64,000 nucleotides of DNA from a virus (IMGVR_UViG_3300029288_006559:32001-96000); one strand, 5' to 3'. Shown: positions 3,724 through 46,050, counted from the stretch's first letter. Notes: generated from the sequence alone by a model not told the origin. Numbers and translations: made by a program.

Positions 3724-4389
3724 ATGACGCAAATAGAGCAAGTTCAGATTCCTATTTTATTACCTAAAAGAGGTAAAGGACATCAAGAAGTAATGGCTTC
3801 TTTTTCTGTTCTTACTTCTAAACCCATAGATCCTCTTACATTTATTCCTATTATAAATACATACGCTAATAAAACGTGTATTATAGTAGATACTGTAGAT
3901 ATGAGTAAACGTTTTTTAAAAACTTTATCATTAGATGATGTGTTCATAAGCATATCTTTTGCATATATGTTAGACAGAGTTTCATCTCAGTTATCTCCTA
4001 CGTTCTTTTCTTTACCTTGTTTCTATGAACGTAGTGTAGGGTTTTCAGATAAAAATAGTATTGCCATAGGAGTTAAGCTACCCATGCAGGCATTTCTAGG
4101 GAAACCTATTTCTTCATCTTTGACTGTTAAAATTGAACATCCTTCAAATGTCTTTTTTGAAGATATTGTGGATAGGGTGTATAAAACTTTAGGGGCTGTT
4201 TTATGCCCTGCGGTTGAGACAAAATCTTTAGATCAAAATCCTTGCTATACTCCCGAAGAAACTTTAAAAAAACTTCGGGGTGTATTCAAAGAGAAGAAAT
4301 TAGGAAAAGGAGGTTCTTTGCAGGTAGAAACTATGGATCTTTATCATATGTATAAATTAACATATACAACATCATGGAAAAACAATTAA
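3724..4389 (+). CDS. degenerate FolE2 (GTP cyclohydrolase IB)-like T-fold protein, catalytic motifs lost
   Basis: Colinear with FolE2 (ISFAY~IEFNY, IGVKLP~LEVNV, FFEDIVD~WIEDVID, SLQVETMDLYH~SLKVENEESIH) but lacks CPCS, HNQR and ESIH. Confidence 0.6.
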   Translation: MTQIEQVQIPILLPKRGKGHQEVMASFSVLTSKPIDPLTFIPIINTYANKTCIIVDTVDMSKRFLKTLSLDDVFISISFAYMLDRVSSQLSPTFFSLPCFYERSVGFSDKNSIAIGVKLPMQAFLGKPISSSLTVKIEHPSNVFFEDIVDRVYKTLGAVLCPAVETKSLDQNPCYTPEETLKKLRGVFKEKKLGKGGSLQVETMDLYHMYKLTYTTSWKNN

Positions 4390-5174
4390 TGACATACGAT
4401 AAAGCTATTTTAAAATTTGGAACTGAGGCTAAGACTCCTAAAATGTCTTTAGGCGGATTATTGCTTTCTAGTGATGGTATATTCTATTCTTTACAAGGAG
4501 AAGGTCCTTCTATAGGACGGCCTGCTATTTTTATTCGTTTACATATGTGTAATTTACAATGTGATTGGACAAAGGCCGGTGGTGGAAGGTGTGATACATT
4601 CTATACCTGGGACAAAGATACCAAAGAATACTGGACATCTCATTTTTTTATGTCTTTTGAAGATATTTTAAAAGAGATTAAAAAATATTCCTGTAAAAGA
4701 ATTGTATTTACAGGAGGAGAGCCTCTGATTCAACAAAAACAAATTTTAGAATTTACGCAAGCATATCTTGATTCAGAGTATATTGTCGAAATAGAAACTA
4801 ATGGTACTATTGCTCCTTCTCGAGAGGTTCTTGCTGATCTTTCCCCCTTTTGTTTAAATTGTTCTCCAAAACTATCCTCAGCGGGAATGGAAAAGAAAGA
4901 TAGAATTAAGCCAGAAGTTTTACAGATTATAAATAACTATGAATCTTCTATTTTTAAATTCGTTGTGACCAGTATTGAAGATTTGGCGGAAATAGAAACC
5001 CTCGTGCAGGAACTTAAGCTACGATCAGACAAGATTGTTATAATGCCAGAAGGGGTAGATGTACAAACATTAACTAAGAGAATGCAAGAGCTAGCTGGCG
5101 TAGTAAAATTAAGGGGGTGGGCTATGATTCCCAGACTACAGATTTTTATTTGGGGGAATAAGAGAGGAGTGTAG
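4389..5174 (+). CDS. queE: 7-carboxy-7-deazaguanine synthase (radical SAM)
   Basis: FYSLQGEG, FIRL, CNLQC-x9-CDT, TGGEPL, IETNG, SPKL, FKFVV, MPEG, PRLQ. Start at 4389 (TAATG overlap) preferred over 4374. Confidence 0.93.
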   Translation: MTYDKAILKFGTEAKTPKMSLGGLLLSSDGIFYSLQGEGPSIGRPAIFIRLHMCNLQCDWTKAGGGRCDTFYTWDKDTKEYWTSHFFMSFEDILKEIKKYSCKRIVFTGGEPLIQQKQILEFTQAYLDSEYIVEIETNGTIAPSREVLADLSPFCLNCSPKLSSAGMEKKDRIKPEVLQIINNYESSIFKFVVTSIEDLAEIETLVQELKLRSDKIVIMPEGVDVQTLTKRMQELAGVVKLRGWAMIPRLQIFIWGNKRGV

Positions 5175-5175
5175 G

Positions 5176-5538
5176 ATGAATTTAGAGGAGGTTCGGCGAC
5201 AAGTTATTAGTGAATTAGATGCTACTTCCGGGGAGCAGGGGCAGGCACATGTTTTAGCCGCCGATGTCGTTCTTACTGCTTTACAAAGACTTGGTTACCG
5301 TATAGTTCCTGCTATGATTAGAGTAGAAGGTAGTGCTATTACAGATTTTCAGAGAGCTATTGCTCAACAATGTGCTTTAGTAAACATTACTTGCAATAAA
5401 CTACACACTTCTTTAGATGGTAAGAAAAGACCGTGCGGTAATCAAATGACTTACCAAGTAGAGGAACAAGATATAAACGGAGCTTCTATAATTCAACTTT
5501 TAATAGCAGATGGGTGGGTTATTATTCCACCTCAGTAG
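5176..5538 (+). CDS. hypothetical protein
   Basis: 120-aa ORF with GAGGAG RBS. Confidence 0.55.
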   Translation: MNLEEVRRQVISELDATSGEQGQAHVLAADVVLTALQRLGYRIVPAMIRVEGSAITDFQRAIAQQCALVNITCNKLHTSLDGKKRPCGNQMTYQVEEQDINGASIIQLLIADGWVIIPPQ

Positions 5539-5548
5539 GAAACTAAAC

Positions 5549-5866
5549 ATGAAAGAGAAAATGTTATCTAAATTATATGAGTGGGCTGAAAGGTTTATTT
5601 TATGGTATGATAGTCGTGTTTACTTGACACATGAAGTAGCTCCATTTTCTTCTACGATGATCGTTACTGTTCCTTGTAAAGGCCAAGTAAAAGCTGGAGA
5701 GTTAGTTGCATATATCTCTGAAGAAGATGGCTCTGGATATTGCATTCCTTGTGGACTAGATAAATCTTTACATCCAATAGGTGTAGCCGTTTCTTCTTCT
5801 GATACAGCTGGCAATATAAACTTACAATTATCTGTAGGTTTTGTTATGCCTTCTAAGTCTAAATGA
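5549..5866 (+). CDS. hypothetical protein (weak resemblance to capsid-cement/DUF2190-like beta proteins)
   Basis: VKAGELV...PIGVAVSS...G.I.LQL pattern; AGGA RBS before ATG 5549. Confidence 0.4.
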   Translation: MKEKMLSKLYEWAERFILWYDSRVYLTHEVAPFSSTMIVTVPCKGQVKAGELVAYISEEDGSGYCIPCGLDKSLHPIGVAVSSSDTAGNINLQLSVGFVMPSKSK

Positions 5867-5901: not shown

Positions 5902-8550
5902 ATGTCTATTTCTTTAAAAGAAGTTAATATTTCTTTTACACCTTTTTGGTGTACCCTTTCTTACTCTCCTACTCCTTCACCAAACTTTTCTCGTGAGCTG
6001 TTAATAGCATTTCAGCAATTAGAACAAGAATTAGATGATGCACTAAAGTTTCATACAGAAGGATATTATTTTTCTCCCCAGTATCAGAGCGGGGGGTGGG
6101 ATGGATATACTCATCTCTATCATTTGAAAACACATCGGTTCAGGGCGGGAATGCTTTTAAAGGTGTTAGAGTTTTTAGAAGTTAAAAGCATCGGCGGAAC
6201 TGTATTTAATTTCCCCGATCCGCAAACTTTTTGCCAAAATAGTAATACCTATACTTTACGCCCTTATCAACTAAAAGCAGCACAAGATGTTTGTAAAAGA
6301 CGGTTTGGGATTTTACAAGCTCCTCCTCGAGCTGGTAAGACAAACATAATTATTGCTATTACAGATTCAGAAAGACGGTTTCCCGCCATATTGTTCTGCA
6401 GGAGTTTAGATTTAGCTTATCAAACTGTAGAAAGATTTAGAAACTTTTTACCATCTGTTTCCGTAGGTTTGGTTGGAGACGGTAAGTGCGATATTCAAGA
6501 TATTACAATTATGACAGTGCAAAGCGCTTTTGAGGCTTTTAATCAGCGTCCGAAAAATTTCGATGTAGCAGAAACTGATAAAGCCTTAGTGCGAGATGTA
6601 GAAAAAGCTTCTGTAAGAAAACTTATTACCGATGCGGAGATTGTTTTCTACGATGAGTGTTTTCCAAAAGGTACATTAGTTCATACTGATGTAGATACAG
6701 TAGTTCCTATAGAAGCAATTTATGAAAATCAAGATATTACTCATGTTCTTTCATATAATAAAGAAACACGAACATTAGAAAGAAAGAGAATTCTTAAAAA
6801 AACGAAGAGAGAAATTTCTAAGGATAGACTGTTTTTAGTAGAAACGTCTTTACATAAAGGAGGAAAAAAATATAAAGTTAGGTGTACTGATACTCATAAG
6901 TTTTGGACAAACAATAGAGGGTATGTAGAAGCAAAAGATTTGTGTTGTAATGATAGTTTAAAAGTGTTAACTACCGGGAATATTCAAACAACTTCTTCTT
7001 ATTATCATGTACCTGTTTTTTGCAAGAGGTGTGGTACACGTTTGAGTAGTTATAAAAAGCTAAAACAGCATAATTACAAATGTCATACGAAAGAAGGGCA
7101 GAGAAAAACGCAGGAACATGCACGTAAAATGTGTATGGAAAGGGAAAAGAACCGAACCTGGAGAAAAAATTTAAAATTAATGGGGTTAAGACGAAGAGGT
7201 AAAAATAATACTGTTTTTAGACATCCTGATACTATTAAAAAGATTAGAGAAACTCACCGTCGACTTTTTAGGAATATGCCGAAAAAAGAACAGTTAATGC
7301 AAATTAAGAGGTTTATGAATGCTCCGATACATAAAAGAAATAAGATTAATCGTCCAGAAAAAACTATTATTTCTTTTAAATTTAAAGGGCTTGAATATAC
7401 TGCAAAAGGTTATCATAATGATAGAAAAGAAACTGCTATAGAATTAATATTAGGTGGTAGAGAAAGATATAAGTTTCCTGATTTTACTTATAAAAAAAGA
7501 AAAAAAGTTATAGAGGTAGCAGATTTTGAATATTGGCATACACGAAAAGAAATGAACAAAGTTAAATACGCTTATAAAAAAGCAGGTTGGGATTGTCTTG
7601 TTTTAAATGCAAAGCAGGTTGTCGAGTTTCCAGATAAGATAAAGCGTAAAATTGTAAAATTTTTGTACAATCATAATGTTTCTCCTATTAAGGTAGGTTA
7701 TTCTAAAATAGGCTTTTATAAACCTACCGTTACTGTTTATAATCTAGAAATAGAAGATAATCATAATTATTTTGCTAACGGATTTCTTGTAAGTAATTGC
7801 CACCACTCTTCTGCAAAAACGAGTAGGTATATACTTGATAGATGCAAAAACGCAGTAATGCGTATCGGTGTAAGTGCTACTCCTTTTGAAGGGGATTCTT
7901 CTGATTGGTTGGTAGAAGAATCTATTGGGCCAGTTATTCATAAGATATCTTACTCTGAGCTTGTAAAAGAGGGGTATATTTTACGCCCTTACATTTATAT
8001 GTATAAACTTCCTCCAATGAATTTAAAGGGGGATGCATATCGGACTGTTTACAAGAAAGCAGTAACTCATAATGATTATCTTACTGGTTTAATAAAGAAA
8101 ATAGTAGATACGTTAACTTCTCAAGGTAATTCCGTCGTTGTGCAAACAGAGTTCATTGAACATACAAAACTTCTTGCTGAAGTTACCGGTGGAGTAATGC
8201 TTACCGGTCAGGAACGAGACATGTCTGTGCGTACAGATGTATTGCAAAGGTTGCGCAGTAAAGAAATACTTTGTGTTGTATCTACTCTTTTTGAAGAAGG
8301 TTTAGATGTTGCTTCCCTTGATTATACAATTAATGTGGCGGGGGGTTTAAGTAATATTGGAACATTGCAAAGAATGCGTTCATTAACAGCGTCTGAAGGA
8401 AAGGAAACCTGTGGTATTATTGATTTTTATCATCAATGCGAATATCTTGAAAGACATAGCAAGATAAGAAGAGATATTTACACTTCTGAGGAGGAATTTG
8501 TTTTTGAGATGAGAGATGTAAGTAAGTTAAAATTAGAGGAGATAGAATAA
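5902..8550 (+). CDS. SF2 (DExH, UvsW-like) helicase containing an intein
   Basis: LRPYQ, APPRAGKT, DE|CH split by intein, GVSATP, EGLDV, QRMR. Confidence 0.9.
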   Translation: MSISLKEVNISFTPFWCTLSYSPTPSPNFSRELLIAFQQLEQELDDALKFHTEGYYFSPQYQSGGWDGYTHLYHLKTHRFRAGMLLKVLEFLEVKSIGGTVFNFPDPQTFCQNSNTYTLRPYQLKAAQDVCKRRFGILQAPPRAGKTNIIIAITDSERRFPAILFCRSLDLAYQTVERFRNFLPSVSVGLVGDGKCDIQDITIMTVQSAFEAFNQRPKNFDVAETDKALVRDVEKASVRKLITDAEIVFYDECFPKGTLVHTDVDTVVPIEAIYENQDITHVLSYNKETRTLERKRILKKTKREISKDRLFLVETSLHKGGKKYKVRCTDTHKFWTNNRGYVEAKDLCCNDSLKVLTTGNIQTTSSYYHVPVFCKRCGTRLSSYKKLKQHNYKCHTKEGQRKTQEHARKMCMEREKNRTWRKNLKLMGLRRRGKNNTVFRHPDTIKKIRETHRRLFRNMPKKEQLMQIKRFMNAPIHKRNKINRPEKTIISFKFKGLEYTAKGYHNDRKETAIELILGGRERYKFPDFTYKKRKKVIEVADFEYWHTRKEMNKVKYAYKKAGWDCLVLNAKQVVEFPDKIKRKIVKFLYNHNVSPIKVGYSKIGFYKPTVTVYNLEIEDNHNYFANGFLVSNCHHSSAKTSRYILDRCKNAVMRIGVSATPFEGDSSDWLVEESIGPVIHKISYSELVKEGYILRPYIYMYKLPPMNLKGDAYRTVYKKAVTHNDYLTGLIKKIVDTLTSQGNSVVVQTEFIEHTKLLAEVTGGVMLTGQERDMSVRTDVLQRLRSKEILCVVSTLFEEGLDVASLDYTINVAGGLSNIGTLQRMRSLTASEGKETCGIIDFYHQCEYLERHSKIRRDIYTSEEEFVFEMRDVSKLKLEEIE
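6658..7797 (+). mobile_element. intein (380 aa) with C2H2 zinc finger and Vsr/DUF559-like endonuclease
   Basis: Starts CFPKGT, block B CTDTHKF, ends YNLEIEDNHNYFANGFLVSN/C. Internal CxxC-x12-H-x4-H and FPDF...IEV...YWH. Confidence 0.88.
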
Positions 8551-12961: not shown

Positions 12962-13897
12962 ATGTCAGAACTTCCAGATATTCAAAATCAAAAAGACGAG
13001 CGTGGTATCGCTATTGATAGAGTTGGTGTAACAGGAATTATATTTCCGACCAAAGTAAGGGTTAAAAGAACGAAGATGGATCAATCTCTTCTTACTCTTC
13101 AACAGGAAACCGCTGCTAAGGTAGATTTATACGTTGGACTTCCTCACGATTATAGAGGAGCTAACCTTTCAAGATTTATGCAATGTTTGCTTTACTTCCA
13201 CCTCCAAGGAGCTGGATGTTTATCTATTGATACATTGCCTGAGCTTTTAAAAAAACTTCAAGAAGAAATGAAAAGTGAAGATGCTTATGCAAGGATAGAA
13301 TTTAATTACTTTGCAAACAAACTTTCTCCTGTAACAGAACTTTCTGCTCCTCAGGCTTACAAGTGTGCGTTTACGGGGATAATGAAAAAGGATGTGTATA
13401 GATTTATCTTGGAAGTGAATGTAATCGCTGCCTCTTTATGTCCTTGCAGTAAAGAGATGAGCCTGTTAGAGAATTTAACTGAAATTGTTAAGGAAAAGGA
13501 TACAGCGACAATCATAGGTGAAGGGGGGCCTCCAATGCTAGCAGGAAAGTCCTTACTCTCCCAGGTTGGTATGGGAGCCCATAATCAACGTTCTTTAATA
13601 CGTGTACAATTAACGTCGAAAGATAATCAAATAATATGGATAGAAGATGTTATTGACGCTATTGAAAAATCAGCTTCTGCTCCTACATACCCTGTATTGA
13701 AAAGGCCAGATGAAAAGTTTGTGACTGAACAAGCATATAACAATGCTAAGTTTAGTGAAGATATTTTAAGAGATTTGCAAAAGAATATAGAAGCTTTACC
13801 TAATGTAGACTCTTGGTCTTTAAAGGTAGAGAACGAAGAGTCTATACATCCTTATAATGTTACATGTTATCAAAATTCTGATAATTGGAATCATTGA
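12962..13897 (+). CDS. folE2: GTP cyclohydrolase IB
   Basis: LPDIQ, IDRVGV, GANLSRF, LCPCSKE, GAHNQRS, LKRPDEK, FSED, ENEESIH. Confidence 0.93.
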   Translation: MSELPDIQNQKDERGIAIDRVGVTGIIFPTKVRVKRTKMDQSLLTLQQETAAKVDLYVGLPHDYRGANLSRFMQCLLYFHLQGAGCLSIDTLPELLKKLQEEMKSEDAYARIEFNYFANKLSPVTELSAPQAYKCAFTGIMKKDVYRFILEVNVIAASLCPCSKEMSLLENLTEIVKEKDTATIIGEGGPPMLAGKSLLSQVGMGAHNQRSLIRVQLTSKDNQIIWIEDVIDAIEKSASAPTYPVLKRPDEKFVTEQAYNNAKFSEDILRDLQKNIEALPNVDSWSLKVENEESIHPYNVTCYQNSDNWNH

Positions 13898-13997: not shown

Positions 13998-14873
13998 ATG
14001 GAGGTATTTATGAATCCCACTAACAATGTTTTACATCACCCCAGAATGCGAAATCGCTGTACCGACAAATCTATTGTCGATTTTCCTGTTATAACTCATC
14101 CACTGCGTATTATAGATGAAAAACAGGAAAAGTTAATTAAAGGTGATAGAGGTGTTTGTGTTGTAAGAAGTGATACTAAAGAAGTTATTTGCCGCGGTAG
14201 TTCCGAGTATCAACTTGTTCCTCATATTCAAATTCTTTCTTCTATAGAAGCTATGTTCGAGGCAAATAATTTGGAATATCAGATATTTGATATTCATACC
14301 GGCGGTACGAAGGGAAATAGGATGTACGTGGATTATATTTTACCCGCACATAAGTTCGATATAGATGGAGACAAATATACTCCCTTTGTTCAAGTACAGA
14401 ATAGTTATGATAAACTTATTTTGTTCGGACTTGTTACAGGTGTTTATCGAACGGCGTGTACAAACGGTTTATTGCTTGGCCTGCGTGATACACAATTTAT
14501 GACAAAGAAACATTTAGGCGAAAATATTTCTTTGAAGGACATTTCTTGGGATATAGATGGTTGGATTCAGAATCTTGGAATTGCACGCGCTCAAATTGCG
14601 AATCTTTTGAAGAAAAAACTATCCAAGACTACTTATGAAGATATATTAAAGAGGGTTTTGAATAAAGAAAAAGATCAAAAGAAGTTTGAAGAAGAAAAGC
14701 TCTACAAGATGTATAGCAAAGAATTTGGTGATAATCAATATGCTTTATTCAATGCTCTGACACATTATGCAACTCATACATTGGATGATGTCGAATTTTG
14801 TAAAAATCATGACAAAGCAAGAGCTATTCAATTAGGTATATCTAAGGTTTTATTGCAGCCGGTTCAAAATTGA
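13998..14873 (+). CDS. DUF932/DUF945-family protein
   Basis: YQLVPH, NSYD, YRTACTNGL, KH, YALFNALTHYATH. Probable start 14010 after GGAGG. Confidence 0.8.
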   Translation: MEVFMNPTNNVLHHPRMRNRCTDKSIVDFPVITHPLRIIDEKQEKLIKGDRGVCVVRSDTKEVICRGSSEYQLVPHIQILSSIEAMFEANNLEYQIFDIHTGGTKGNRMYVDYILPAHKFDIDGDKYTPFVQVQNSYDKLILFGLVTGVYRTACTNGLLLGLRDTQFMTKKHLGENISLKDISWDIDGWIQNLGIARAQIANLLKKKLSKTTYEDILKRVLNKEKDQKKFEEEKLYKMYSKEFGDNQYALFNALTHYATHTLDDVEFCKNHDKARAIQLGISKVLLQPVQN

Positions 14874-14999: not shown

Positions 15000-15971
15000 A
15001 TGAGTGACATCTCAGTAGAAATTGATAAATTAGCTGAACAATGTTGTGAAAAAATGACTTGGAGTGCCAGAACAGAATATTTTCGTTATCAGAAGCGGGT
15101 GCGAGAAGAAGGTAAATGTATTAAGAAAAGATATGAGGTGGGTAATTATTATTATAAAGGTAAACGGCGTGGGCAATTGCGCGATGTATATGAAGTAAAG
15201 GGAGATCTTTTTAATCAATTATGGAAAAAATTATACCCTTACGCAATTACATCAATTATGAATTCTGGTATTGCTAAAGACAGGGACGATGCAGAGTGTA
15301 TTGCATCTGATATGAAAGCTCAAGCTTTTTATGTTCTGCGATCTTTCGGATCCGTTGTTCGTGGCAAGAAGCGTAATCAGAAATTTTCAGGTGTGTTTCG
15401 TACTATTGTAATAAATGTTCTTCAGACCACCGCAAGACGTAGGGGTAGAGTTTCAAAACATAAAATTGAAGAACATAAAATTACAGAATATAGATGTCCT
15501 GAATGTGGTAGTGAACTATATCAGCATCCAAATCTAGCATTTAAAGATATTTTAATTTGTCCTCATTGTGATAATAAAGAATTTTCAAAGTTCGGGAAAG
15601 GTTATAGTACTCGTATTTTATTTGATGCTGTTAGTATCAATTCTCCTGTTAATAGCGATGAAAACGGGAATGGAATGACTTTAGAGGATAAGATTCCCAG
15701 CAGTTCTATTGTAAACAATTTTCCCTTGATAATAGATGTCCCCGATAAATTTCAATCATACATTTTTGATTTATTAAAAGGGAAATCTATAGTTGACGTA
15801 GCAAAACAGAATGGGTACCGGACGAAGGAAAGAATTGCAAAGTTTAGGTCTGATTTGCAAGAAGCAATGGGGCCTGTTTTGCAAGAATATTTTCCGAAAA
15901 AATTACATTATGATGAAAAAAAAGAAATGTGGAAAGTAATAAAATCTATTAAAAAGGAGAAACATATATGA
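15000..15971 (+). CDS. phage sigma70-like factor with zinc-ribbon insertion
   Basis: Region-2-like DDAECI...KFSGVFRTIVINVLQT..RR; CPEC/CPHC; region-3-like VSINSPV...TLEDKIP; C-terminal HTH (GKSIVDVAKQNG). Confidence 0.6.
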   Translation: MSDISVEIDKLAEQCCEKMTWSARTEYFRYQKRVREEGKCIKKRYEVGNYYYKGKRRGQLRDVYEVKGDLFNQLWKKLYPYAITSIMNSGIAKDRDDAECIASDMKAQAFYVLRSFGSVVRGKKRNQKFSGVFRTIVINVLQTTARRRGRVSKHKIEEHKITEYRCPECGSELYQHPNLAFKDILICPHCDNKEFSKFGKGYSTRILFDAVSINSPVNSDENGNGMTLEDKIPSSSIVNNFPLIIDVPDKFQSYIFDLLKGKSIVDVAKQNGYRTKERIAKFRSDLQEAMGPVLQEYFPKKLHYDEKKEMWKVIKSIKKEKHI

Positions 15972-16411
15972 AAAACTTAATTGTTTTTATAATTGCAATA
16001 ATTACTTTGTCCGGCTGCTTTGGTCCTGCAGCTGATATTATTTTGCAAAAAGATGATTTATTTACCCAACCATTGAAAAAGGTTCTAATCAAGGTTGAAA
16101 GTCTTTCGGTGGCAGATAAACTTCAAACAGAAGAAGAACTGGTTGAAGAATTTAAGACGGTATTAATAGATGCCAGTGCAGATCACGAGCTTTTTCCACT
16201 GACTGAGGATTATTCTTTAACATACAGAGATAGTGTTTTAAAGGCTCAAAATTTCGATGGTATTCTTGAAATACGCCCTTATGGGAATATTATCCTATAT
16301 GATATACAAGGACGTAAACTTGTAGTAGCGGGTAATTTAAAGTCAGAAAAATTTCCAGATGCTTACTATCTCGTGATGTGGCTACAAGGACTTGGTTTTA
16401 CAGAAGGTTAG
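15968..16411 (+). CDS. putative lipoprotein
   Basis: Signal peptide ending in lipobox LSGC. Confidence 0.65.
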   Translation: MKNLIVFIIAIITLSGCFGPAADIILQKDDLFTQPLKKVLIKVESLSVADKLQTEEELVEEFKTVLIDASADHELFPLTEDYSLTYRDSVLKAQNFDGILEIRPYGNIILYDIQGRKLVVAGNLKSEKFPDAYYLVMWLQGLGFTEG

Positions 16412-16453
16412 AGGAATTTCTTTCAGAAGAAGGTGAGTTGTTAGCGTAACCAT

Positions 16454-16470
16454 GCGTGTATAATAATAGA
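16454..16470 (+). promoter_or_regulatory. class B motif GCGTGTAT plus AT-rich tract (candidate phage promoter)
   Basis: Recurs at 26962, 29672, 29760, 35702, 38568 and 58851. Confidence 0.55.
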
Positions 16471-16522
16471 TAGAAAGATGTATTTATAGTGTATTATCCC
16501 TTGATTTTATTGGTTAAAAATG

Positions 16523-16568
16523 TTGCTTTTTTGGGTAAATATGGACATATTATATTATGGTAAGAAAG
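16523..16568 (+). promoter_or_regulatory. class A promoter TTGCTT-N17-CATATT-N6-TGGTAAGAAAG
   Basis: Second copy of the motif. Confidence 0.72.
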
Positions 16569-16602
16569 CACATAATCCAAACAATAATAAAGGAATGAAT
16601 CT

Positions 16603-18743: not shown

Positions 18744-20429
18744 ATGAAAAAAGCTATTATTATTCTTTCTGGAGGGATGGACTCCGCAGTACTATTAGCT
18801 AAGGTTTTAAAAGAGGAGTATGAAGTAGAAACCTTAAGCTTTGACTATGGTTCTAAACACAACGATGAAGAGTATAAACACGCATTAATGCTTTGCGAAT
18901 ATTATAAGGTTAAAAATCAGAGAATTGCTCTTCCGTTTGTGAATGACCTATTCAAATCTGACTTACTAAAAAGCGGTGGAGATATTCCCGAAGGGCACTA
19001 TGAAGATGAGAGTATGCAACGTACTGTAGTGCCAAATCGTAATGCTATTATGCTTTCCATAGCAGTAGGCTATGCTGAATCTGTTGGAGCTGGAGTTGTA
19101 TTTTATGGCCCTCATGCAGGAGACCACGCAATATACGATGATTGTCGCGATACTTTTGTAATACCTTTTGATAAAGCTATGCAAGCTGCTTCTGGAGGTA
19201 AAGTTGTAATAAAGGCTCCTTTTTTAGCATTGACAAAACGCGATATAGGTTTGATTGGAAAAGAGCTTGATGTTCCTTTTGAGAAGACCTATTCTTGTTA
19301 CAAGGGCGGAGAAAAGCATTGCGGGAAATGTGTAGCGAAAGATACAGAAATTCTTATGGGGGATTATAGTAAAAAATTAATTCAAGATATTGTAGTTGGG
19401 GATATTATTTTAAGCTACGACAAGAAAAAGAAATTAATTATTCCTAACAAAGTTGTGCAGGTACATTCTAACGGAAAGCAGGTTATTTATAATGCTAAGT
19501 TTGGAAGAAACATTCTTAGGTGTACTGATTCTCATAAGATTGCAAGATACACTAGTAGCAAAAATGTAGAGTTTGCTGTAGCAAAGAAGTTTTCTTCTTA
19601 TAAGCATTCAAACGCTTTTGTTGTTCCTTTTTGGAAAGATTTAACGCCTGTTGATTTAAAAGCATTCTGGACAGGGTGGTTATCCGGAGTTGTTGACGGA
19701 GACGGAAGTTTTGCGTCGCCGAAGAGCTACCCCAGAGAAAGATTTTTAGGAGTTCCTGTCAAGGAGGTAATTTTTGCAAAATTGATAAAAGAAAACGTAA
19801 AAAAATATTTTAATATAGATATGAGATTTGTAGATCATAAATCCTCCAGTATTGTTAAAGCACATAGTAAAATGATAAACGTTTGTTGTAGCATTACAAG
19901 AGATGTAAAAGCAGTTGAGAATCAGATTAAGTCATATGAAAAGACACTTGATTTTTGGAAAGGGTGGTTAAGAGGTATAATTGATACCGATGGGGGTATA
20001 GATAGATTTTCCTATAGAATTTATCAAAGCAAGCCTGTGATAGTGGCTAAGATTCGTCGAGCATTAAAGCAGTTAAATTTACCTTTTACTGAATATGTCC
20101 AGACAAAAGAAGATCATAATAGTAATTCCAAAAATAAATTACATGCTAATTACGATGCATATACTTTTGTTCTTTCTAGTGGGCATTTAACTAATGTAAT
20201 GACGGGTAATATTAAAACATTTAAGTATAAAGAGTTTAGTTTCTTATTAAAATTTTTAACTCGTCCCGTCTTTGATTCCTTAAAGGTAATAGGGGAAGAC
20301 GATACTTATGATTTAACAACAGAAATAGGTAATTACTTTGCTGATGGCTTCCTAATTCACAATTGTGGCACGTGTACAGAACGAAAAGAAGCTTTAGCAG
20401 GGTTTGATCCAACACAATACCTTGCGTAG
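18744..20429 (+). CDS. queC: 7-cyano-7-deazaguanine (preQ0) synthase containing an intein
   Basis: SGGMDS, FDYGSKH, TVVPNRN, YDDCR, TYSCY; spliced product gives HCGKCGTCTER. Confidence 0.94.
   Translation: MKKAIIILSGGMDSAVLLAKVLKEEYEVETLSFDYGSKHNDEEYKHALMLCEYYKVKNQRIALPFVNDLFKSDLLKSGGDIPEGHYEDESMQRTVVPNRNAIMLSIAVGYAESVGAGVVFYGPHAGDHAIYDDCRDTFVIPFDKAMQAASGGKVVIKAPFLALTKRDIGLIGKELDVPFEKTYSCYKGGEKHCGKCVAKDTEILMGDYSKKLIQDIVVGDIILSYDKKKKLIIPNKVVQVHSNGKQVIYNAKFGRNILRCTDSHKIARYTSSKNVEFAVAKKFSSYKHSNAFVVPFWKDLTPVDLKAFWTGWLSGVVDGDGSFASPKSYPRERFLGVPVKEVIFAKLIKENVKKYFNIDMRFVDHKSSSIVKAHSKMINVCCSITRDVKAVENQIKSYEKTLDFWKGWLRGIIDTDGGIDRFSYRIYQSKPVIVAKIRRALKQLNLPFTEYVQTKEDHNSNSKNKLHANYDAYTFVLSSGHLTNVMTGNIKTFKYKEFSFLLKFLTRPVFDSLKVIGEDDTYDLTTEIGNYFADGFLIHNCGTCTERKEALAGFDPTQYLA
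19329..20363 (+). mobile_element. intein (345 aa) with LAGLIDADG endonuclease
   Basis: CVAKDT start, CTDSHKI, LSGVVDGDG and LRGIIDTDG, YDL...NYFADGFLIHN/C. Confidence 0.92.
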
Positions 20430-21822: not shown

Positions 21823-22638
21823 ATGAGAATTGCACACGAAGCTCCTCTTTCTCTTATGAAATATGTTAAACAAGTTACTGACTATGATTATGCCCTAGCC
21901 TCTTTGTTTGATAATGTTTCAGGATATTATGAATATTTTAAGCAATCAAAAAAAGAGGGGCGTAAGATCCTTCTAGACAATGGTGTCTTCGAAGAAGGCG
22001 TTGCGATGAAAGATAAAGATTATGTTAATTGGATTAAAGATCTCCAACCAGATGAGTATATAGTTCCTGATGTAATGGGAGATATGCATAGAACTGTGGT
22101 TAACTTTCAAAAATGGTTATTAGAGTATCAGGATCTTCCAGGAAAGAAAATAGGGGTAGTTCATGGATATACTATAGAAGAGTTTATAGAATGTTATAAG
22201 TACATGTCTACATATGCTGATAAAATAGCTATAAATTTTTCTCAATCTTTTTATCAAGAAATTTATCCTCAACAACAAGGTATGAGTAAAGAAATAAAGC
22301 AAGCACAAGGAAGATTGTGGATTACGGGGCATTTACATTCTCTAGGTATTTGGAACGCAGAAAAACCACATCACTTGTTAGGAGCTTCTGTTCCTAGCGA
22401 ATTTAGTGCGTATGTAGAAAGACACCCTTCATTTGTATACAAGTCTATAGAATCTATTGATACAAGTAACCCCATTGTATATGCTATAGTAAAAGGAAGA
22501 TATCCCAAACATATAAGTGGGGTTGTAACAAAAGAAACTACTAAGGTAAAGGATTTGATAACTACTCCTTACTCTGATAAGCTTTTGATAGACGTTATAG
22601 CTAATGTTATTCAATTTAGAACACAAAATAACCTCTAA
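21823..22638 (+). CDS. TGT-fold base-exchange transglycosylase (DpdA-like candidate)
   Basis: ILLDNGVFE, IVPDV, GVVHG, HHLLG and SIDTS follow the TGT/DpdA motif order; genome encodes the preQ0 pathway. Confidence 0.7.
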   Translation: MRIAHEAPLSLMKYVKQVTDYDYALASLFDNVSGYYEYFKQSKKEGRKILLDNGVFEEGVAMKDKDYVNWIKDLQPDEYIVPDVMGDMHRTVVNFQKWLLEYQDLPGKKIGVVHGYTIEEFIECYKYMSTYADKIAINFSQSFYQEIYPQQQGMSKEIKQAQGRLWITGHLHSLGIWNAEKPHHLLGASVPSEFSAYVERHPSFVYKSIESIDTSNPIVYAIVKGRYPKHISGVVTKETTKVKDLITTPYSDKLLIDVIANVIQFRTQNNL

Positions 22639-22641: not shown

Positions 22642-23202
22642 ATGCAAATTGAAGATCTTTCTACTTGTAAAAAGAAATATTTCATAATATACGCAGACCC
22701 TCCTTGGTCGTATAAAAGAAAAGGAGGGCCAAAACATATTGGTACTGCACACCAAACATACAAATCAACTATGTCTGATGAAGAAATTTATAATCTTCCT
22801 ATCAAACATATTGCTGCAAAAAATGCTATTTTGTTTTTATGGATTACTTTTCCTAAATTAAAAGAAGGTCTTATTACACTTGAGAAGTGGGGTTTTGAAT
22901 ATAAGACAGTAGGATTTGTGTGGGTAAAAGTAAACAAAAAACAATGGACATTGTTTTGGGGTTCAGGTCATTATACTCGGGCTAATGCTGAAGTATGTTT
23001 AATAGGAATAAAAGGGCATCCTAAAATAAAGAGACATGATGTACATTCTGTTGTAATTGATCGTAATGTAAAACATTCCCGAAAACCTGTTGTAGTAAGA
23101 GAAAGAATTGTCAAACTTTGCGGTAACTTATCCCGTATAGAATTATTTGCAACCCAAGAGGTAGAAAAATGGGATTGCTTCGGAAATGAGATTGAAAAAT
23201 GA
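22642..23202 (+). CDS. MT-A70-family N6-adenine methyltransferase
   Basis: IIYADPPW, LFLW, WGFEYKT, WVK, HSRKP, RIELFA. Confidence 0.9.
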   Translation: MQIEDLSTCKKKYFIIYADPPWSYKRKGGPKHIGTAHQTYKSTMSDEEIYNLPIKHIAAKNAILFLWITFPKLKEGLITLEKWGFEYKTVGFVWVKVNKKQWTLFWGSGHYTRANAEVCLIGIKGHPKIKRHDVHSVVIDRNVKHSRKPVVVRERIVKLCGNLSRIELFATQEVEKWDCFGNEIEK

Positions 23203-32184: not shown

Positions 32185-32400
32185 ATGCAGAAAAAATTCA
32201 ATAAAATAATTGAGACAAAACTCAGAGCGCGAATTGATGGATTACAAGTGTGGCTTGACAAGAATGGAAAGGATTGTCAAAAACAACAAGGCCACCTTAT
32301 AGAAATGTCAATAGAAAGAATATATTGGCATTATGGCTATATGGTGGCCTTAATGGATGCCCTTCGTCTGATGGAAAAAACTAAAATACAACAAAATTAG
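32185..32400 (+). CDS. IS passenger hypothetical protein
   Basis: 71-aa ORF just inside the left TIR. Confidence 0.5.
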   Translation: MQKKFNKIIETKLRARIDGLQVWLDKNGKDCQKQQGHLIEMSIERIYWHYGYMVALMDALRLMEKTKIQQN

Positions 32401-32741
32401 TTTTCACATCCAGACACTGGACATTGATACTTTGTTCCCGTTGGTTTTGCAGGGTGGACCTGATTATCAGGCGGAGAAAAATCATGATAAAGAATACATT
32501 CCTTCGCGAACGCTTCTTTCGATGTTTTGTAAAAAGCGTGTTTGAAATGGGTATATTCTCCCACATGTTGTTTTAATCGGCCATTCAAATCGTCGTCTGA
32601 TCTGCCAACATAGGAGACAGAAAAGCCACCTTCTTTATTCTTTGTTCCAAGAGCGTAAGCTCCCGGAGCAATTCCGGCGGCATTTTCGTCTATACTTGTT
32701 GTAGTCAACGGAAACGGTCCATACAATCCGGTACTTGCCAT
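32397..32741 (-). CDS. IS passenger: small GIY-YIG-like protein
   Basis: GAYALG...SYVGRS...LNGRLKQH...KEC; C-terminal CPVSGC; AAAGGA RBS. Confidence 0.65.
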   Translation of the reverse strand: MASTGLYGPFPLTTTSIDENAAGIAPGAYALGTKNKEGGFSVSYVGRSDDDLNGRLKQHVGEYTHFKHAFYKTSKEAFAKECILYHDFSPPDNQVHPAKPTGTKYQCPVSGCEN

Positions 32742-32891
32742 TGTATGTTCCTTTCAATTTAGAATGAAAAAACACTTGCATCTGAAATTTGAGGAATGTA
32801 AATTGAACACAGTCTATCTCAATTCCCCACGTGCAAGTAGTGGATTATATCACAAGTGGGATTGTGATTTTAAACCCGGGATAGTTCGTTG

Positions 32892-33383
32892 CTATTTCGG
32901 GTTTTCATTTTTTTGATCGACCTCTTTCTCTTCTGGTTCTTCTGTTTGAGCTTTTTCTCGCTCTTTTGCCTTTTCAGGATAAAACTCCCATAGCCCATAA
33001 GCACTACTACTTTTAACGAATACAAAATCTCTGCGATTTTTTCCCAACGACACGGCCACTCCGCGAAACCAGAACTTTTCATCTCCCGTGAATTCAAAGC
33101 CCCCCTCTTTTAAAGCAGTGTATATTTCTTCTGCCGTAGCTGCTCTCCCTCTCATTCTTAAGTATTCTTTCATTGCCGTTGTCAGGGCTTTTCCGAAAAA
33201 TTGGTCGGGCTGAACCCGAATAATTCCTGTTATAATACTGGAATCAATATTAGAATATGGCGGTGGATCGCCAACTAAAACAGAGAGTTCGTTTATTGTA
33301 CGCTTCAAACTTGCCTCTTTTTGCAAAATAGTTTGGAGTTCGGTTGTTAGGGACTCAATGGCTTTTTTAAGATCGGCAGACAT
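32892..33383 (-). CDS. IS passenger: coiled coil plus HARE-HTH-like winged-helix protein
   Basis: AMKEYL...ATAEEIYTAL..GG...SL..N...F...AYGLWEFY; upstream TTGACT-N17-TATATT. Confidence 0.65.
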   Translation of the reverse strand: MSADLKKAIESLTTELQTILQKEASLKRTINELSVLVGDPPPYSNIDSSIITGIIRVQPDQFFGKALTTAMKEYLRMRGRAATAEEIYTALKEGGFEFTGDEKFWFRGVAVSLGKNRRDFVFVKSSSAYGLWEFYPEKAKEREKAQTEEPEEKEVDQKNENPK

Positions 33384-33635
33384 TTGTCTTTCCTTTCTAA
33401 ATGTGATTAATTTTTATGTATCTAATATACGTATAGCGAAACCAAAAGTCAATAGTCATGTATATTATACATAATAACAGCTGTAAAATATTGATTTATA
33501 AGGTGTTGGGGGCGTTTTCGCAACAGTTGTAGTGTTGTTGCTATCACTCTATTAAATGAGTGCTAATGAGGTTATTTAACTTGCATGTTTATTTATTATT
33601 TGCTATTTTAGTATTGCTTGAAAAAACAATTATAA

Positions 33636-33748
33636 ATAAAAAACCCGTCACCGATTGCAGTCGGAACGGGTCTAATAAATTACTCAATAATATTAAAAAG
33701 AAAGGACGGTTAAAATGAACCGAATTAGAGATTCATCATAATACATCC
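33636..33748 (-). ncRNA. candidate ~110-nt small RNA inside the IS
   Basis: TTGACC-N17-TATATT (33783-33755) upstream; ends in ACCCGT/ACGGGT hairpin plus U-run. Confidence 0.4.
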
Positions 33749-33779
33749 AACGACAATATAATAAATTGTCAGATAAAGG

Positions 33780-33914
33780 TCAACGAGTTTTTTTCGTTGG
33801 CCTTTTTTTTGTTTTTTTCAAGGATTTTAATTGAAAGATTTTTTTTACAGTGTCCTTGAATTCTTCTTCATTTATCGAATAGGATATATTGTCCTTTTTT
33901 GTCTGTTTTTGCAT
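33780..33914 (-). CDS. small basic ORF (44 aa) downstream of the transposase
   Basis: AAAAGGA RBS; MQKQTKKDN...PTKKTR. Confidence 0.45.
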   Translation of the reverse strand: MQKQTKKDNISYSINEEEFKDTVKKIFQLKSLKKTKKRPTKKTR

Positions 33915-33926
33915 TATTCCTTTTCT

Positions 33927-34859
33927 TTAGTTTAATGAGTCCTTGTACATTAACCTTTTACCTTCGATCATAGAGATAGCAACTTCCATTCTTTCAGTAT
34001 CACTAATTTTACGATTATTCCATCTGAAAGCAAATTCATTACAATACTTCTCTAAATGTTCTTTGGATACATTATGAAATGTTCCATAGATACCACGCTT
34101 TAATAATGCAAAGAAAGACTCTGCTGTATTATTATTAACTTCGCCTCGTGCATATTCCCATTTAGAATGATTTACAGAATGATGTCTACCGTTGAAATAT
34201 ACTCCGATGTTGTTATATAACGGAGAATCATCGCTCATAATTTTAGAATTTACATCAATGTTCTTTCGCATTACTTCACGAAGATTTATTCTATTAACAT
34301 CAGGCATTACTTTTGTTTTTGCTCTACCGTCTCTTTCTACTAATACAACAACGGGAGTTTTACCGGCTGTACCACGACCATGAAACTTTCTCTTTGCTAA
34401 TTTCCTTGGTTTGCCTCCAATATAGGCTTCGTCTGCCTCTATGATACCAGCTAACTTTTCCATGCTTGTATCTTCCATTGCATGACGGATTCTATGAGAC
34501 ATAAACCATGCAGATTTATAAGTAATTCCTAACATACGCTCTAATTGTTTAGAAGATATTGCTTTTTTAGATGCACAGATTAAAAAGATTGCAGCAAGCC
34601 AAGTACCTAAAGGAATATGACTGGATTCCATTATAGTGCCAACAGTAACAGTAAATTGCTGACGACATTTAGAACAAAAGTAAACGCCTTTTCTTGCTCC
34701 GTGTTCGGATTCTTTATGTGCAGTAATTTTATGATCTTGTTTAGTTTTACAGCGAGGACATATAGCACCATTAGGCCAGCGAATATTTTCTAAAAAGCTA
34801 CGCGCTTTGTCATCGCTTCCGTATTTCTTCAGTAGTTCTGTTAATGTTAAGTCTGCCAT
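33927..34859 (-). CDS. IS1595-family DDE transposase
   Basis: RWPNG..CPRC...CSKC Zn ribbon, HTH, IEADEAYIGG, MSDD, HHSVNHS, NTAESF, YCNEFAFRWN. Confidence 0.95.
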   Translation of the reverse strand: MADLTLTELLKKYGSDDKARSFLENIRWPNGAICPRCKTKQDHKITAHKESEHGARKGVYFCSKCRQQFTVTVGTIMESSHIPLGTWLAAIFLICASKKAISSKQLERMLGITYKSAWFMSHRIRHAMEDTSMEKLAGIIEADEAYIGGKPRKLAKRKFHGRGTAGKTPVVVLVERDGRAKTKVMPDVNRINLREVMRKNIDVNSKIMSDDSPLYNNIGVYFNGRHHSVNHSKWEYARGEVNNNTAESFFALLKRGIYGTFHNVSKEHLEKYCNEFAFRWNNRKISDTERMEVAISMIEGKRLMYKDSLN

Positions 34860-34972: not shown

Positions 34973-35701
34973 ATGCTAGAACATTCTATCATTTTATGTT
35001 ATCGTGGGAGCATTGCTCATAATACTTATATTCCAAATGCTGATCCTAACTCTATCGACGATAAAGATGTTATTGGAGTAGCTATCCCACCTGCTTCTTA
35101 TTTTTATGGATTAAAAAAGTTTGAGCAGTTTGAAAAAATAGAAGGTAGTTGGGATGTATTGGTTTATGATTTTAAAAAGTTTATTAATTTACTAATCAAA
35201 TCCAATCCTAATGTTTTGTCCGTTTTATGGGCACCTTCTAAGTATATAATCAAAACTTCTTGGGCATTTGAGAAACTTCAGGAGCACAGGCATTTGTTTG
35301 CGCATAAACAGATTTACGAAACTTTTGTAAATTATGCCAAAGCACAATTACATAAGATGGAACACATGGTTTATTGTGGCTATATGGGGAAGAAAAGGAA
35401 AAACCTTGTAGATAAGTTCGGTTATGATTGTAAAAACGCAGCTCATTTAATCAGGTTGTTGCGGCAAGGGGCTGAATTTTTACAGACAGGCGAACTTGTT
35501 GTTGAACGACCTGATAGAGAACAGTTGATTGCTATAAAAACAGGACAATGGAGTCTCCAGCAAGTAAAAGAAGAAGCTGAAAAGTTATTTACAGTGCTTG
35601 CAAATGCTTACACCTACAGTTCCTTACCCGAGCAAATTGATATTGAAAGGGTGGATCTATTGACTCAAGATATTTTAGAAAAACATTTTTTGTCAGAATA
35701 A
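34973..35701 (+). CDS. Nuc-transf/RlaP-like Pol-beta-superfamily nucleotidyltransferase, 5' end separated by the IS
   Basis: RGSIAH...SIDDKDVIG, SNPNVL, YDCKNAAHLIRLL, LIAIKTG. Confidence 0.82.
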   Translation: MLEHSIILCYRGSIAHNTYIPNADPNSIDDKDVIGVAIPPASYFYGLKKFEQFEKIEGSWDVLVYDFKKFINLLIKSNPNVLSVLWAPSKYIIKTSWAFEKLQEHRHLFAHKQIYETFVNYAKAQLHKMEHMVYCGYMGKKRKNLVDKFGYDCKNAAHLIRLLRQGAEFLQTGELVVERPDREQLIAIKTGQWSLQQVKEEAEKLFTVLANAYTYSSLPEQIDIERVDLLTQDILEKHFLSE

Positions 35702-44096: not shown

Positions 44097-44170
44097 GTAA
44101 AACGTTAGAAGCACGGGATATAGAAGAAAGATCGAGACTCTATTTAGTTACACGACAGCAGAGAAAATAA

Positions 44171-45148
44171 ATGAAATTAGGATTCTTTACAGATACTCAC
44201 ATAAGAGCAGATTCTCCGGAAGGAAGAACTGATAATTTTCGTCAATCTATTTTGACCAAATTAGAAGAAATAGGCCAAATTTGGAAGGACAATTCTGTAA
44301 GTGTTGTCTTATTTGGCGGGGATTTATTTCATACCCCTGATGTTGCAAAAAGCGTGATTAATGATGTAATTCCTATTTTTAGATCCTGGCAATTACCTAT
44401 TATTGGCGTAGTGGGTAGTCATGATTATTTCGGTTATCAACTAAAGAGTCTTAAACGTACTGCTTTAGGACATTTTGTTAATTTTGGATGTATCCAACTT
44501 GTTGGGGATGAAGATTTAATACCTGAAATTAATTTAGAGATTCATGTAGGGGATGGTATATTCATTACAGGAACTAGTCATAGCTATTGGTTTGCAGATA
44601 CTCCTACTATCTGTAATAAAACTATAGAAGATGGATCTACAGTAAAATATCAAATTCAGTTGGTACATGGGGATTTGTTCAATACCTCCGTTCCTTGGCC
44701 TCATATCTTGACTTCACAAGTAAAAACAGAGTCTGATTTAGTTTTGTCTGGTCACATTCACTCTGGTTGGCCAAATAAAATTATTAAGCATGGAAACACA
44801 AAGTTTGTAAACCCTGGAGGAGTGGCCCGTTTAGAAAATACAGGTGTACAAAGAATTCCAATGGTTTGTACTATCGACGTGTATATTAATAATAAAAAAG
44901 AAACTAATATGGATTCTAAAATAGATTTTATTCCATTGATGAGTGCACTTCCACACCCCTTTAAAGAAAAAGTAGTTAAAGAAGAAGAAACTATTCAAGA
45001 CGTTTCTAAGCTTATCCAGTTAATTTCTTCTACTAAAATTGAGGCTATTGATATTAAAGCTCAACTTCCAGTAGCTGCTAAGGAACTTAAGATGTCTAAA
45101 CAAGTTTTGGAAAGGGCTTTTGAATTTATTGAAAGTGTTCCCACATGA
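44171..45148 (+). CDS. sbcD: SbcD/Mre11-like nuclease
   Basis: TDTH, GGDLFH, GSHD, LVHG, SGHIH, NPGG. Confidence 0.88.
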   Translation: MKLGFFTDTHIRADSPEGRTDNFRQSILTKLEEIGQIWKDNSVSVVLFGGDLFHTPDVAKSVINDVIPIFRSWQLPIIGVVGSHDYFGYQLKSLKRTALGHFVNFGCIQLVGDEDLIPEINLEIHVGDGIFITGTSHSYWFADTPTICNKTIEDGSTVKYQIQLVHGDLFNTSVPWPHILTSQVKTESDLVLSGHIHSGWPNKIIKHGNTKFVNPGGVARLENTGVQRIPMVCTIDVYINNKKETNMDSKIDFIPLMSALPHPFKEKVVKEEETIQDVSKLIQLISSTKIEAIDIKAQLPVAAKELKMSKQVLERAFEFIESVPT

Positions 45149-45477
45149 AAAAGTTACTTACTAAATTTATGCGAGGGAAACAGACCTCGTCTTCTAATTC
45201 CAGTTCTAATACAGGAGATTCTTTTATGTCGTCAGCAAAACCTACTACCGTTACAATTCGTTATCATAATGAAAAAGACGAAAAGTTTGAATGTGTCTAT
45301 GCAAAGCCAGGAGCCGGGGCTTTGATTGTTGCTAATAAGTTATCAGGCTATACCGATCGTTGGCAATTTCGTTATATTCCCTTTTCCAACCCGGAGATTG
45401 TGGATATTGTTGTCGAGAGCGAGTCAAAAGAAGGAAAAGGTCACTATCATAGTCGCAACAGAGATGAAGATATTTAG
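45145..45477 (+). CDS. hypothetical protein
   Basis: 110-aa ORF. Confidence 0.5.
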   Translation: MKKLLTKFMRGKQTSSSNSSSNTGDSFMSSAKPTTVTIRYHNEKDEKFECVYAKPGAGALIVANKLSGYTDRWQFRYIPFSNPEIVDIVVESESKEGKGHYHSRNRDEDI

Positions 45478-45600
45478 AAAAATCATTTGTTGGTTGTTTC
45501 ATCGGAATGAAGGTTTAATTCCTATTCGGCCGGGTTCAAGCGTCTGTAAGTGTGTTAAATGTGGTTGCGAATGGGTTAAGAGTTATTAATAGGAGGAAGT

Positions 45601-46050
45601 ATGTTTGCAATTCATAAGTCTTTTAGTTGGGATATGGGGCATCGTATTAGCCAGCACGGAGGAAAATGTTTTTCTCCGCACGGTCATCGTTATAATGCCA
45701 CCGTTTGGCTTGGGGGGGTGCTTGGCGATAAAGGTATGGTAATGGATTTTTATCGGCTTTCTCAGATAGTTGACCCTATTGTTGAAGAGCTAGACCATGC
45801 CTTTATGGTATATGAAAAAGATGATGTAATGCGGTGGTTTTTCAGTGAGTGTAATAAGGAGGATCGTTGTTCTATATTACAAAAGCCCGAACGTCCCTTT
45901 AAAGTCAAGGTCGTTCCTTTTGAGTCTACAGCTGAGAACATTGCAAAGTATATTTTTGATAGGGTTTACGAAAAAACTCCTAATGTTGTTAAAGTAGAAG
46001 TTTGGGAGACTCCAAAATGTTGTGCTGTTTATGAGATTAATCTTGCCTGA
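45601..46050 (+). CDS. queD: 6-carboxy-5,6,7,8-tetrahydropterin synthase
   Basis: MGHR...C..PHGHRY, MVMDF, LDHA, STAENIA, VWETP. Confidence 0.93.
   Translation: MFAIHKSFSWDMGHRISQHGGKCFSPHGHRYNATVWLGGVLGDKGMVMDFYRLSQIVDPIVEELDHAFMVYEKDDVMRWFFSECNKEDRCSILQKPERPFKVKVVPFESTAENIAKYIFDRVYEKTPNVVKVEVWETPKCCAVYEINLA

Follow-up and report, generated by a model that had tools for sequence, protein, structure and literature searches.

The uncultured large phage represented by IMG/VR virus record IMGVR_UViG_3300029288_006559 very probably encodes a 7-deazaguanine DNA-modification system of the DpdA3 type, for which we infer both the final base and the extent of replacement from sequence. We analyzed bases 32001-96000 of this 134,292-bp record, which is ~73% complete as estimated by CheckV; this 64,000-nucleotide stretch is referred to here as the window, and all coordinates are counted from its first base. 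An earlier note on the window, which was made from the DNA sequence alone, had proposed that a deazaguanine base is made by FolE, QueD, QueE and QueC and inserted into DNA by a DpdA enzyme, and that the system contains several non-canonical parts. The first proposal is well supported by homology to three characterized DpdA3 phages and by a complete FolE2-QueD-QueE-QueC pathway, whereas most of the parts regarded as non-canonical (the transglycosylase, the MT-A70, TYW3-like and Nmad1 genes, and FolE2) are either ordinary or sub-threshold matches. What is new here is a conserved, re-purposed copy of FolE2 (3724-4389); apart from this copy, the system simply adds one more member to the published DpdA3 family. 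The further suggestion of the earlier note, that the DNA carries a possibly new derivative of the base, could hold only through this FolE2-derived gene.

Putative DpdA3 transglycosylase and base-synthesis genes

The gene for the candidate DNA guanine transglycosylase, P0001 (271 aa), occupies positions 21823..22638 of the plus strand. When P0001 was used as a query in tblastn searches, it matched only DpdA3-type phage genes, namely those of Flavobacterium phage immuto, the Campylobacter phage CP220 group, the phiST group and a few others. Its nearest annotated relative is the immuto protein, which is labeled "DNA guanine transglycosylase" (41.8% identity, 3e-52, 98% coverage), followed by proteins of the CP220 group (38%, 6e-43, 100%) and of the phiST group (24%, 7e-9, 95%); P0001 also matches phrog_19058 across its full length (2.1e-46). 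Similarity thus assigns the gene to DpdA3, a family that was defined for the CP220, immuto and phiST proteins (Cui et al. 2023, PMC10516641). The DNA of these three phages contains no detectable deoxyguanosine (dG), with dADG present in CP220, dDG in phiST and fdPreQ1 in immuto (PMC10516641). The family is large: IMG/VR contains at least 545 relatives, 867 clusters were counted in the protein collection, and a metagenome scan with DpdA3 returned loci that were only 51% identical.

No Pfam, NCBIfam or sequence-based PDB match was obtained for P0001, and the Pfam TGT model remained silent even at an E-value of 10. An AlphaFold2 (AF2) model built with 36 homologues has a pLDDT of 95.3, and the top 50 PDB matches listed by Foldseek are all TGT, ArcTGT or DpdA (7ui4) structures, with E-values from 1.7e-9 to 9e-8, in agreement with the TGT fold claimed in the earlier note. 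Residues D52 (in LLDNG), D83 (VPD), D213 (IDTSNP) and H184 are invariant in the 36-sequence alignment of the P0001 family and also in a second alignment to which the CP220 and immuto proteins were added. In Salmonella DpdA the active-site aspartates Asp95, Asp130 and Asp256 serve as acid/base, base-binding residue and nucleophile, respectively, and are invariant in TGT/DpdA (PMC10164549); the three aspartates and the histidine of P0001 were matched to the catalytic residues of DpdA by sequence order only. The LDN and DTSNP motifs are common to P0001 and the CP220 protein. The enzyme had been described as a divergent TGT with DNG in place of DSG, a description that has to be given up: the DNG motif is a family trait, because LDN(G/S) is conserved across DpdA3, CP220 and immuto included. 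P0001 is a bare barrel with a single cysteine and therefore has no TGT-type zinc site. On these comparisons we classify P0001 as a predicted, ordinary member of the published DpdA3 family.

The base that such an enzyme would insert is expected to come from four further gene products. FolE2 (GTP cyclohydrolase IB; 12962..13897, plus strand; Pfam GCHY-1 1.8e-73) is apparently intact: it scores above the NCBIfam FolE2 equivalog cut-off (224.9 vs 215 bits), it retains the motifs CPCS160, HNQR207 and ESIH293, and it is the only FolE2-model match over the cut-off in the 134-kb record, with no second one found. The cyclohydrolase is thus of type IB and not IA, as had been noted, but this is not peculiar to the genome, since FolE2 instead of FolE is found in other DpdA3 loci as well (see the scan of 80 loci below). 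QueD (6-carboxytetrahydropterin synthase; 45601..46050, plus strand; Pfam PTPS 2.3e-30) carries the sequence CFSPHGH, which fits the intact QueD signature CxxxHGH, as opposed to the signature LxxxHRHxF of DpdL (PMC10516641); the latter is not matched by this gene, the single PTPS gene of the record. QueE is represented by a QueE-like radical SAM enzyme (7-carboxy-7-deazaguanine synthase; 4374..5174, plus strand) with Pfam Radical_SAM/Fer4_12 matches and similarity to phrog_2076, annotated as "QueE-like" (6.5e-58). Its five best NCBIfam matches are all QueE models, each below its cut-off.

The fourth gene, queC (18744..20429, plus strand; Pfam QueC 9.8e-57, residues 3-198), is interrupted by an intein, as the earlier note had proposed. 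The N-extein (nucleotides 18744-19328) alone is above the NCBIfam QueC equivalog cut-off (179 vs 150 bits), and the C-extein corresponds to nucleotides 20364-20426. Between them lies a class-1-type intein of 345 aa with a LAGLIDADG homing endonuclease domain (19329..20363, plus strand; QueC residues 196-540), for which the Hom_end_hint and LAGLIDADG_3 Pfam matches are sub-threshold. The insert begins with cysteine (CVAKD...), ends in His-Asn (LIHN) and is followed by cysteine as the +1 residue; by these end residues it is assigned to class 1 and is predicted to splice. The insertion point falls within the zinc-binding cysteine motif. The joined exteins read SCYKGGEKHCGK up to the junction and CGTCTER after it, which aligns with the zinc motif of the CP220 QueC, and the motif SCYKGG..C..C.TC..R is found in both phages. 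Because the intein sits inside the zinc motif, QueC activity would depend on splicing. The immuto QueC, unlike that of this phage, is without the cysteine motif. When QueC was compared with its CP220 and immuto counterparts, nothing in the sequences told an enzyme that yields preQ0 apart from one that yields ADG.

In summary, FolE2, QueD, QueE, an intein-bearing QueC and a TGT-fold gene each occur where they had been reported. The record would thus encode the full canonical preQ0 pathway from FolE2 through QueD and QueE to QueC, the last step being contingent on the predicted splicing. The occurrence of a gene set of this size is far beyond chance.

This intein is one of three within 21 kb, the other two residing in a UvsW-like helicase (5902-8550) and in a polymerase fusion protein (23199-27029), where the intein is found near the N-terminus of the UDG-exonuclease-PolA fusion. 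For comparison we used two IMG/VR contigs, G001 (45 kb) and G002 (72 kb), which are distant syntenic relatives of the record with shared proteins ~30-57% identical. The helicase intein is missing from G001 and G002 and the polymerase intein from G002, the alignments being contiguous across the sites; no intein was seen in the QueC of G002. As these relatives do not have them at the aligned sites, the inteins are likely to be recent arrivals in the phage.

In the mechanism that we propose, FolE2 would convert GTP to dihydroneopterin triphosphate, QueD would yield 6-carboxytetrahydropterin (CPH4), and QueE would yield 7-carboxy-7-deazaguanine (CDG). QueC would become functional only once splicing of the intein has restored its zinc motif, and would then make the amide (ADG) and the nitrile (preQ0). 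DpdA3, a minimal TGT-fold TIM barrel with three invariant aspartates, would exchange guanine in the phage DNA for this base, and the modified base could shield G-containing sites from restriction. The adjoining MT-A70 protein would add N6-methyladenine independently, and the FolE2-derived T-fold protein, presumably translationally coupled to QueE, would be a conserved extra component.

Predicted DNA base

Family searches of the 134-kb record found no QueF, no Formyl_trans_N domain (DpdN), no ArcS core (DUF5591), no DUF3109 (DpdM), no match to the TGT model, no second PTPS protein (DpdL) and no second QueC (Gat-QueC). For QueF in particular, PF14489 had nothing in the record at E ≤ 1, and tblastn with the immuto QueF, DpdN, kinase, phosphoribosyltransferase and FolE proteins against the whole record returned nothing. 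The search of the rest of the genome for queF, arcS, dpdM and dpdN that the earlier note had recommended has therefore been carried out on the ~73% complete record, and none of these genes was found.

The closest precedent for such a gene set is Campylobacter phage CP220 (Firehammervirus), in which 100% of dG is replaced by dADG and which encodes a QueC-like protein, QueD and the DpdA3 protein gp056 (PMC10516641). Like this phage, CP220 combines QueC and DpdA3 without QueF and has its deazaguanine genes scattered through a large genome. The two phages differ in that CP220 has neither the FolE2-derived paralogue nor an intein in QueC, in that only this phage uses FolE2, and in the position directly after DpdA3, which holds a kinase in CP220 and an MT-A70 gene here, no such kinase being present in the record. 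Immuto resembles this phage in gene order, in which DpdA3 is followed by family A DNA polymerase (PolA), GroES and GroEL. However, between DpdA3 and the polymerase immuto encodes a type IA FolE, DpdN, a kinase and QueF, whereas the same slot is occupied here by MT-A70 alone. Because QueF, DpdN, DpdM, DpdL, ArcS and Gat-QueC are absent from the record, the predicted base is dPreQ0, or dADG as in CP220, which probably replaces dG at high occupancy or completely.

We also examined the neighborhoods of the 80 DpdA3 loci nearest to this one among the IMG/VR relatives. QueF was present in 74 of the 80, DpdN in 40, and a small kinase adjoining DpdA3 in 67; the three loci that had DpdN without QueF were truncated by contig ends. 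These counts include the first of several points that weigh against our proposal. With QueF beside DpdA3 in so many loci, a QueF-less layout is a minority pattern. The ~27% of the genome that is missing from the record could contain QueF or a further tailoring gene. Most of the loci, CP220 and immuto have a small kinase after DpdA3 that is absent from the record, so the usual machinery may be incomplete or different here. In E. coli, DpdA3 activity has so far never been obtained by reconstitution (PMC10516641). Finally, the FolE2-derived protein encoded beside QueE could change the end product.

A conserved FolE2-derived family encoded upstream of QueE

The gene at 3724..4389 (plus strand) encodes a 221-aa protein, P0123, which we describe as a FolE2-derived bimodular T-fold paralogue on the basis of an AF2 model, Foldseek searches and a family hidden Markov model (HMM). 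The AF2 model has a pLDDT of 73.5 and shows the topology beta-beta-alpha-alpha-beta-beta twice. The top ten Foldseek matches are all GCYH-IB/DUF198 structures (E 1.7e-9, TM 0.76), and the independent aligner VIA gives a Z-score of 18.9 to the FolE2 structure 2r5r over 211 residues, as compared to 14.6 for uricase, 9.3 for QueF-L, 8.8 for FolE and 7.8 for QueF. The Atlas clusters nearest to P0123, by features as well as by structure, are FolE2. Sequence similarity is weak at the level of single proteins and small alignments: pairwise BLASTP between P0123 and the phage's own FolE2 gives an E-value of 0.012, and an hhalign comparison with seven sequences gives a probability of 9.6%. It becomes apparent at the profile level, where a wider P0123 profile hits 2r5r at 3.9e-19, where hhalign against a FolE2 alignment gives 97% probability, and where the phage's FolE2 obtains 43 bits with a P0123-family HMM from which the one true FolE2 (see below) had been left out.

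Among 1.84 billion representatives, a profile search detected 50 clusters of the P0123 family (~50 at 50% identity). Of the 44 members that were aligned, 43 lack the cyclohydrolase motifs CPC[ST], H.QR and ES.H, the exception being the weakest match, which is a true FolE2. The family has motifs of its own (PKRGKGH.E, LDRVS, a near-invariant Cys99, FED..D and D.Y), and positions G19, F79, C99, P120, E146, D147, P162 and D205 reach at least 90% conservation among the 44. In alignments, its FED motif falls on the conserved (W)IED of FolE2. The N- and C-terminal extensions of the longer members gave no informative match. Because the motifs CPC(S/T), H(N)QR and ES(I)H are absent, we do not file P0123 as a cyclohydrolase; the fold and the profile-level homology, together with the loss of these motifs, indicate a FolE2 descendant that has lost the metal loop. 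The family is conserved over deep divergence and is not a decaying copy. The earlier note's "dead FolE2 paralogue" is thus a real FolE2-type T-fold protein that has lost the cyclohydrolase motifs, but it is not simply dead, since it belongs to a conserved family of its own. The open reading frame (ORF) that follows FolE2 (13998-14873) was also considered as the dead paralogue and was ruled out, as it matches DUF932 in the Pfam scan.

P0123 and FolE2 (2r5r, 3d2o) have in common the bimodular T-fold, profile-level homology and the FED/IED motif; P0123 differs in being ~90 residues shorter, in having no CPCS...HNQR loop and in having DLYH in place of ESIH. A second comparison is with QueF and QueF-L, FolE-derived T-fold enzymes that act on preQ0 via a cysteine thioimide. 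Like these, P0123 is a cyclohydrolase-derived T-fold protein in which the metal site is lost and a near-invariant cysteine is kept, and it is encoded in a deazaguanine pathway, one that is otherwise without QueF. Unlike QueF, it has no sequence match to that family and its structure is much nearer to FolE2, so the likeness is one of analogy and not of membership. P0123 has no QueF Pfam match; the NADPH-binding motif of QueF was not searched for.

The genomic context of the family is constant in the contexts that we could retrieve. The stop codon TAA of the P0123 gene overlaps an alternative ATG start of QueE at 4389 (TAATG), and in 3 of 3 contexts (the window's record, G001 and G002) the gene is found directly upstream of QueE; in G002 it also comes directly after a ribonucleotide reductase gene. 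As G001 and G002 each carry a true FolE2, QueC and a DpdA3-like gene, the P0123 family is paired with a true FolE2 in all three contexts, and QueF is absent from all of them (~251 kb altogether). The family was found in viral sequence only. It is absent from CP220 and immuto, tblastn at an E-value of 1 gave no match in GenBank phages, and no member turned up in two pattern scans of the GTDB representative genomes. In scans of viral contigs, profiles of close relatives returned nothing, while the wider profile returned the two loci of G001 and G002. No member was found within 10 kb in any of the 80 DpdA3 loci described above, 74 of them with QueF, and in one locus (L009) QueF itself occupies the position immediately upstream of QueE.

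In G002 (L102:4025-6137) DpdA3 is followed by a gene similar to immuto DpdN (28% identity, E 3e-15), whose product lacks a Pfam formyltransferase match at E 0.01; next come an uncharacterized 259-aa ORF and a kinase.

Alternative explanations

The role of P0123 bears directly on the identity of the base. It is possible, if rather doubtful, that P0123 is a new catalytic enzyme of the pathway and that the DNA carries something other than plain dPreQ0; such an enzyme could replace QueF and give preQ1, could form an amidine or amide on preQ0 in the manner of QueF-L, or could act on CDG, and the side chain that results might be different and possibly new. The family is conserved, with motifs of its own, and it has lost the cyclohydrolase motifs while keeping FED/IED and gaining a cysteine. 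Its position upstream of QueE in contexts that have no QueF, its absence from CP220, immuto and the QueF-rich set of 80 loci, and the presence of QueF in the equivalent slot of L009 all point in the same direction, and re-purposing of T-fold proteins in this pathway has precedents in FolE to QueF and QueF to QueF-L (PMC5699537) and in QueD to DpdL (PMC10516641). However, this evidence is positional and phyletic, the three contexts are syntenic relatives, and the anti-correlation with QueF may reflect lineage inertia. The structure of P0123 is nearer to FolE2 than to either QueF-L or QueF (Z of 18.9, 9.3 and 7.8), and P0123 might just as well serve FolE2 or QueE as a non-catalytic partner. Moreover, a host QueF could supply preQ1, and the DpdN-like gene of G002 is no proof of a need for preQ1, since it lacks a Pfam match to formyltransferase.

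The remaining alternatives concern the point at which the base enters nucleic acid. DpdA3 could act on free nucleotides or nucleosides, with the polymerase incorporating a modified dGTP analogue; complete replacement of G is difficult to achieve by post-replicative exchange, and the small kinase found after DpdA3 in 67 of the 80 loci, in CP220 and in immuto would suit such a pre-replicative route. We consider this route unlikely, since the published view is one of post-replicative exchange (PMC10516641) and since the argument from the kinase is inapplicable to a record without one. It is much less probable still that the genes serve tRNA, with the phage boosting queuosine or preQ-type tRNA modification and the TGT-fold protein acting as a tRNA enzyme. 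The preQ0 pathway is indeed common to tRNA modification, and the fold matches of P0001 to tRNA TGTs are as strong as those to DpdA, but P0001 is a 271-aa barrel with one cysteine, no TGT-type zinc site and no Pfam TGT match, and all its annotated or characterized relatives are DpdA3 proteins of phages with fully modified DNA (PMC10516641).

Accessory genes and genomic setting

The gene that adjoins DpdA3 (22642..23202, plus strand) encodes a real MT-A70 DNA adenine methyltransferase, with a Pfam match of 5.9e-30 over the full domain and the DPPW motif (YADPPWSY). The earlier note had included it among the non-canonical parts of the pathway; its adjacency to DpdA3 holds, but it is an ordinary phage adenine methylase. 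It is ~50% identical to DNA methyltransferases of Pasteurella, Mannheimia, Klebsiella, Vibrio and Stx phages, which have no deazaguanine genes, and this similarity to the methylases of many unrelated phages led us to reject it as a deazaguanine-specific methylase. In G001 an MT-A70 gene (59% identical) is located right after QueE. Judged from these homologues, the protein probably provides an independent second modification (m6A) outside the deazaguanine pathway. Two other proposed accessory genes did not hold up. The TYW3-like ORF (3271-3720) matches PF02676 at 12.2 bits over 29 residues, as compared to a cut-off of 27 bits, its Atlas lead is only 0.83, and it has no homologue in G001 or G002. 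For Nmad1 (DUF1599, PF07659) the best match in the record scores 17-18 bits against a cut-off of 25 bits and is located at 48674-49141, beyond the range to which the earlier note had assigned the system.

The window covers the part of a large uncultured phage genome that is devoted to replication and nucleotide metabolism. Its G+C content is 34% and nearly all of its genes are on the plus strand. They include a class II-like ribonucleotide reductase, the UvsW-like helicase with its intein, DnaB, a split primase, RecA, ThyX, dUTPase, dCMP deaminase, an SbcCD-like pair, RNA ligase and a GroEL-like chaperonin. A megablast search with window positions 18000-24000 found no match among GenBank phages.

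Several neighbors of the system were observed along the way. The family A DNA polymerase (23199-27029) carries an N-terminal UDG-superfamily domain (Pfam UDG 4.6e-26, residues 434-554), which precedes the 3'-5' exonuclease and polymerase domains. The GroEL-like chaperonin is encoded 3' of the polymerase, within 27045-29668 (Cpn60_TCP1 2.7e-68), and is preceded by a 118-aa ORF that is kept in G001 and could be a co-chaperonin. Positions 15000-17364 encode two proteins of 323 aa (with a zinc ribbon) and 253 aa (with no family match), whose homologues lie directly 5' of the DpdA3-like gene in G001; one of the pair has a homologue adjoining QueC in G002. Just 3' of them, positions 17461-17658 encode a partial copy of the 253-aa protein, 66 residues long and 61% identical to it. 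The two proteins could be accessory factors or merely syntenic neighbors. Directly 5' of DpdA3 is an RNA ligase with a PHA02142 OB-fold domain (20746-21792), and an RlaP-family nucleotidyltransferase, of the RNA repair pathway, is encoded at 34973-35701; the presence of both suggests a capability for RNA repair. The sole minus-strand block of the window (32397-34859), which is also the sole interval with a GC skew of about zero, contains an IS1595-family transposase (33927-34859; DDE_Tnp_IS1595 9.5e-41) and two small ORFs, one of them weakly GIY-YIG-like, and has the appearance of a mobile element that inserted itself into the phage genome.

Implications for DpdA3 systems

To our knowledge, no route other than a DpdA3 system leads to complete replacement of guanine in a DNA genome. 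The phage clade described here offers a different layout of such a system, one that is both kinase-less and QueF-less. If P0123 is catalytic, it would be a new enzyme and might lead to a new DNA base; if it is instead a partner subunit, it may be one of the factors that have been missing for working DpdA3 systems in the laboratory.

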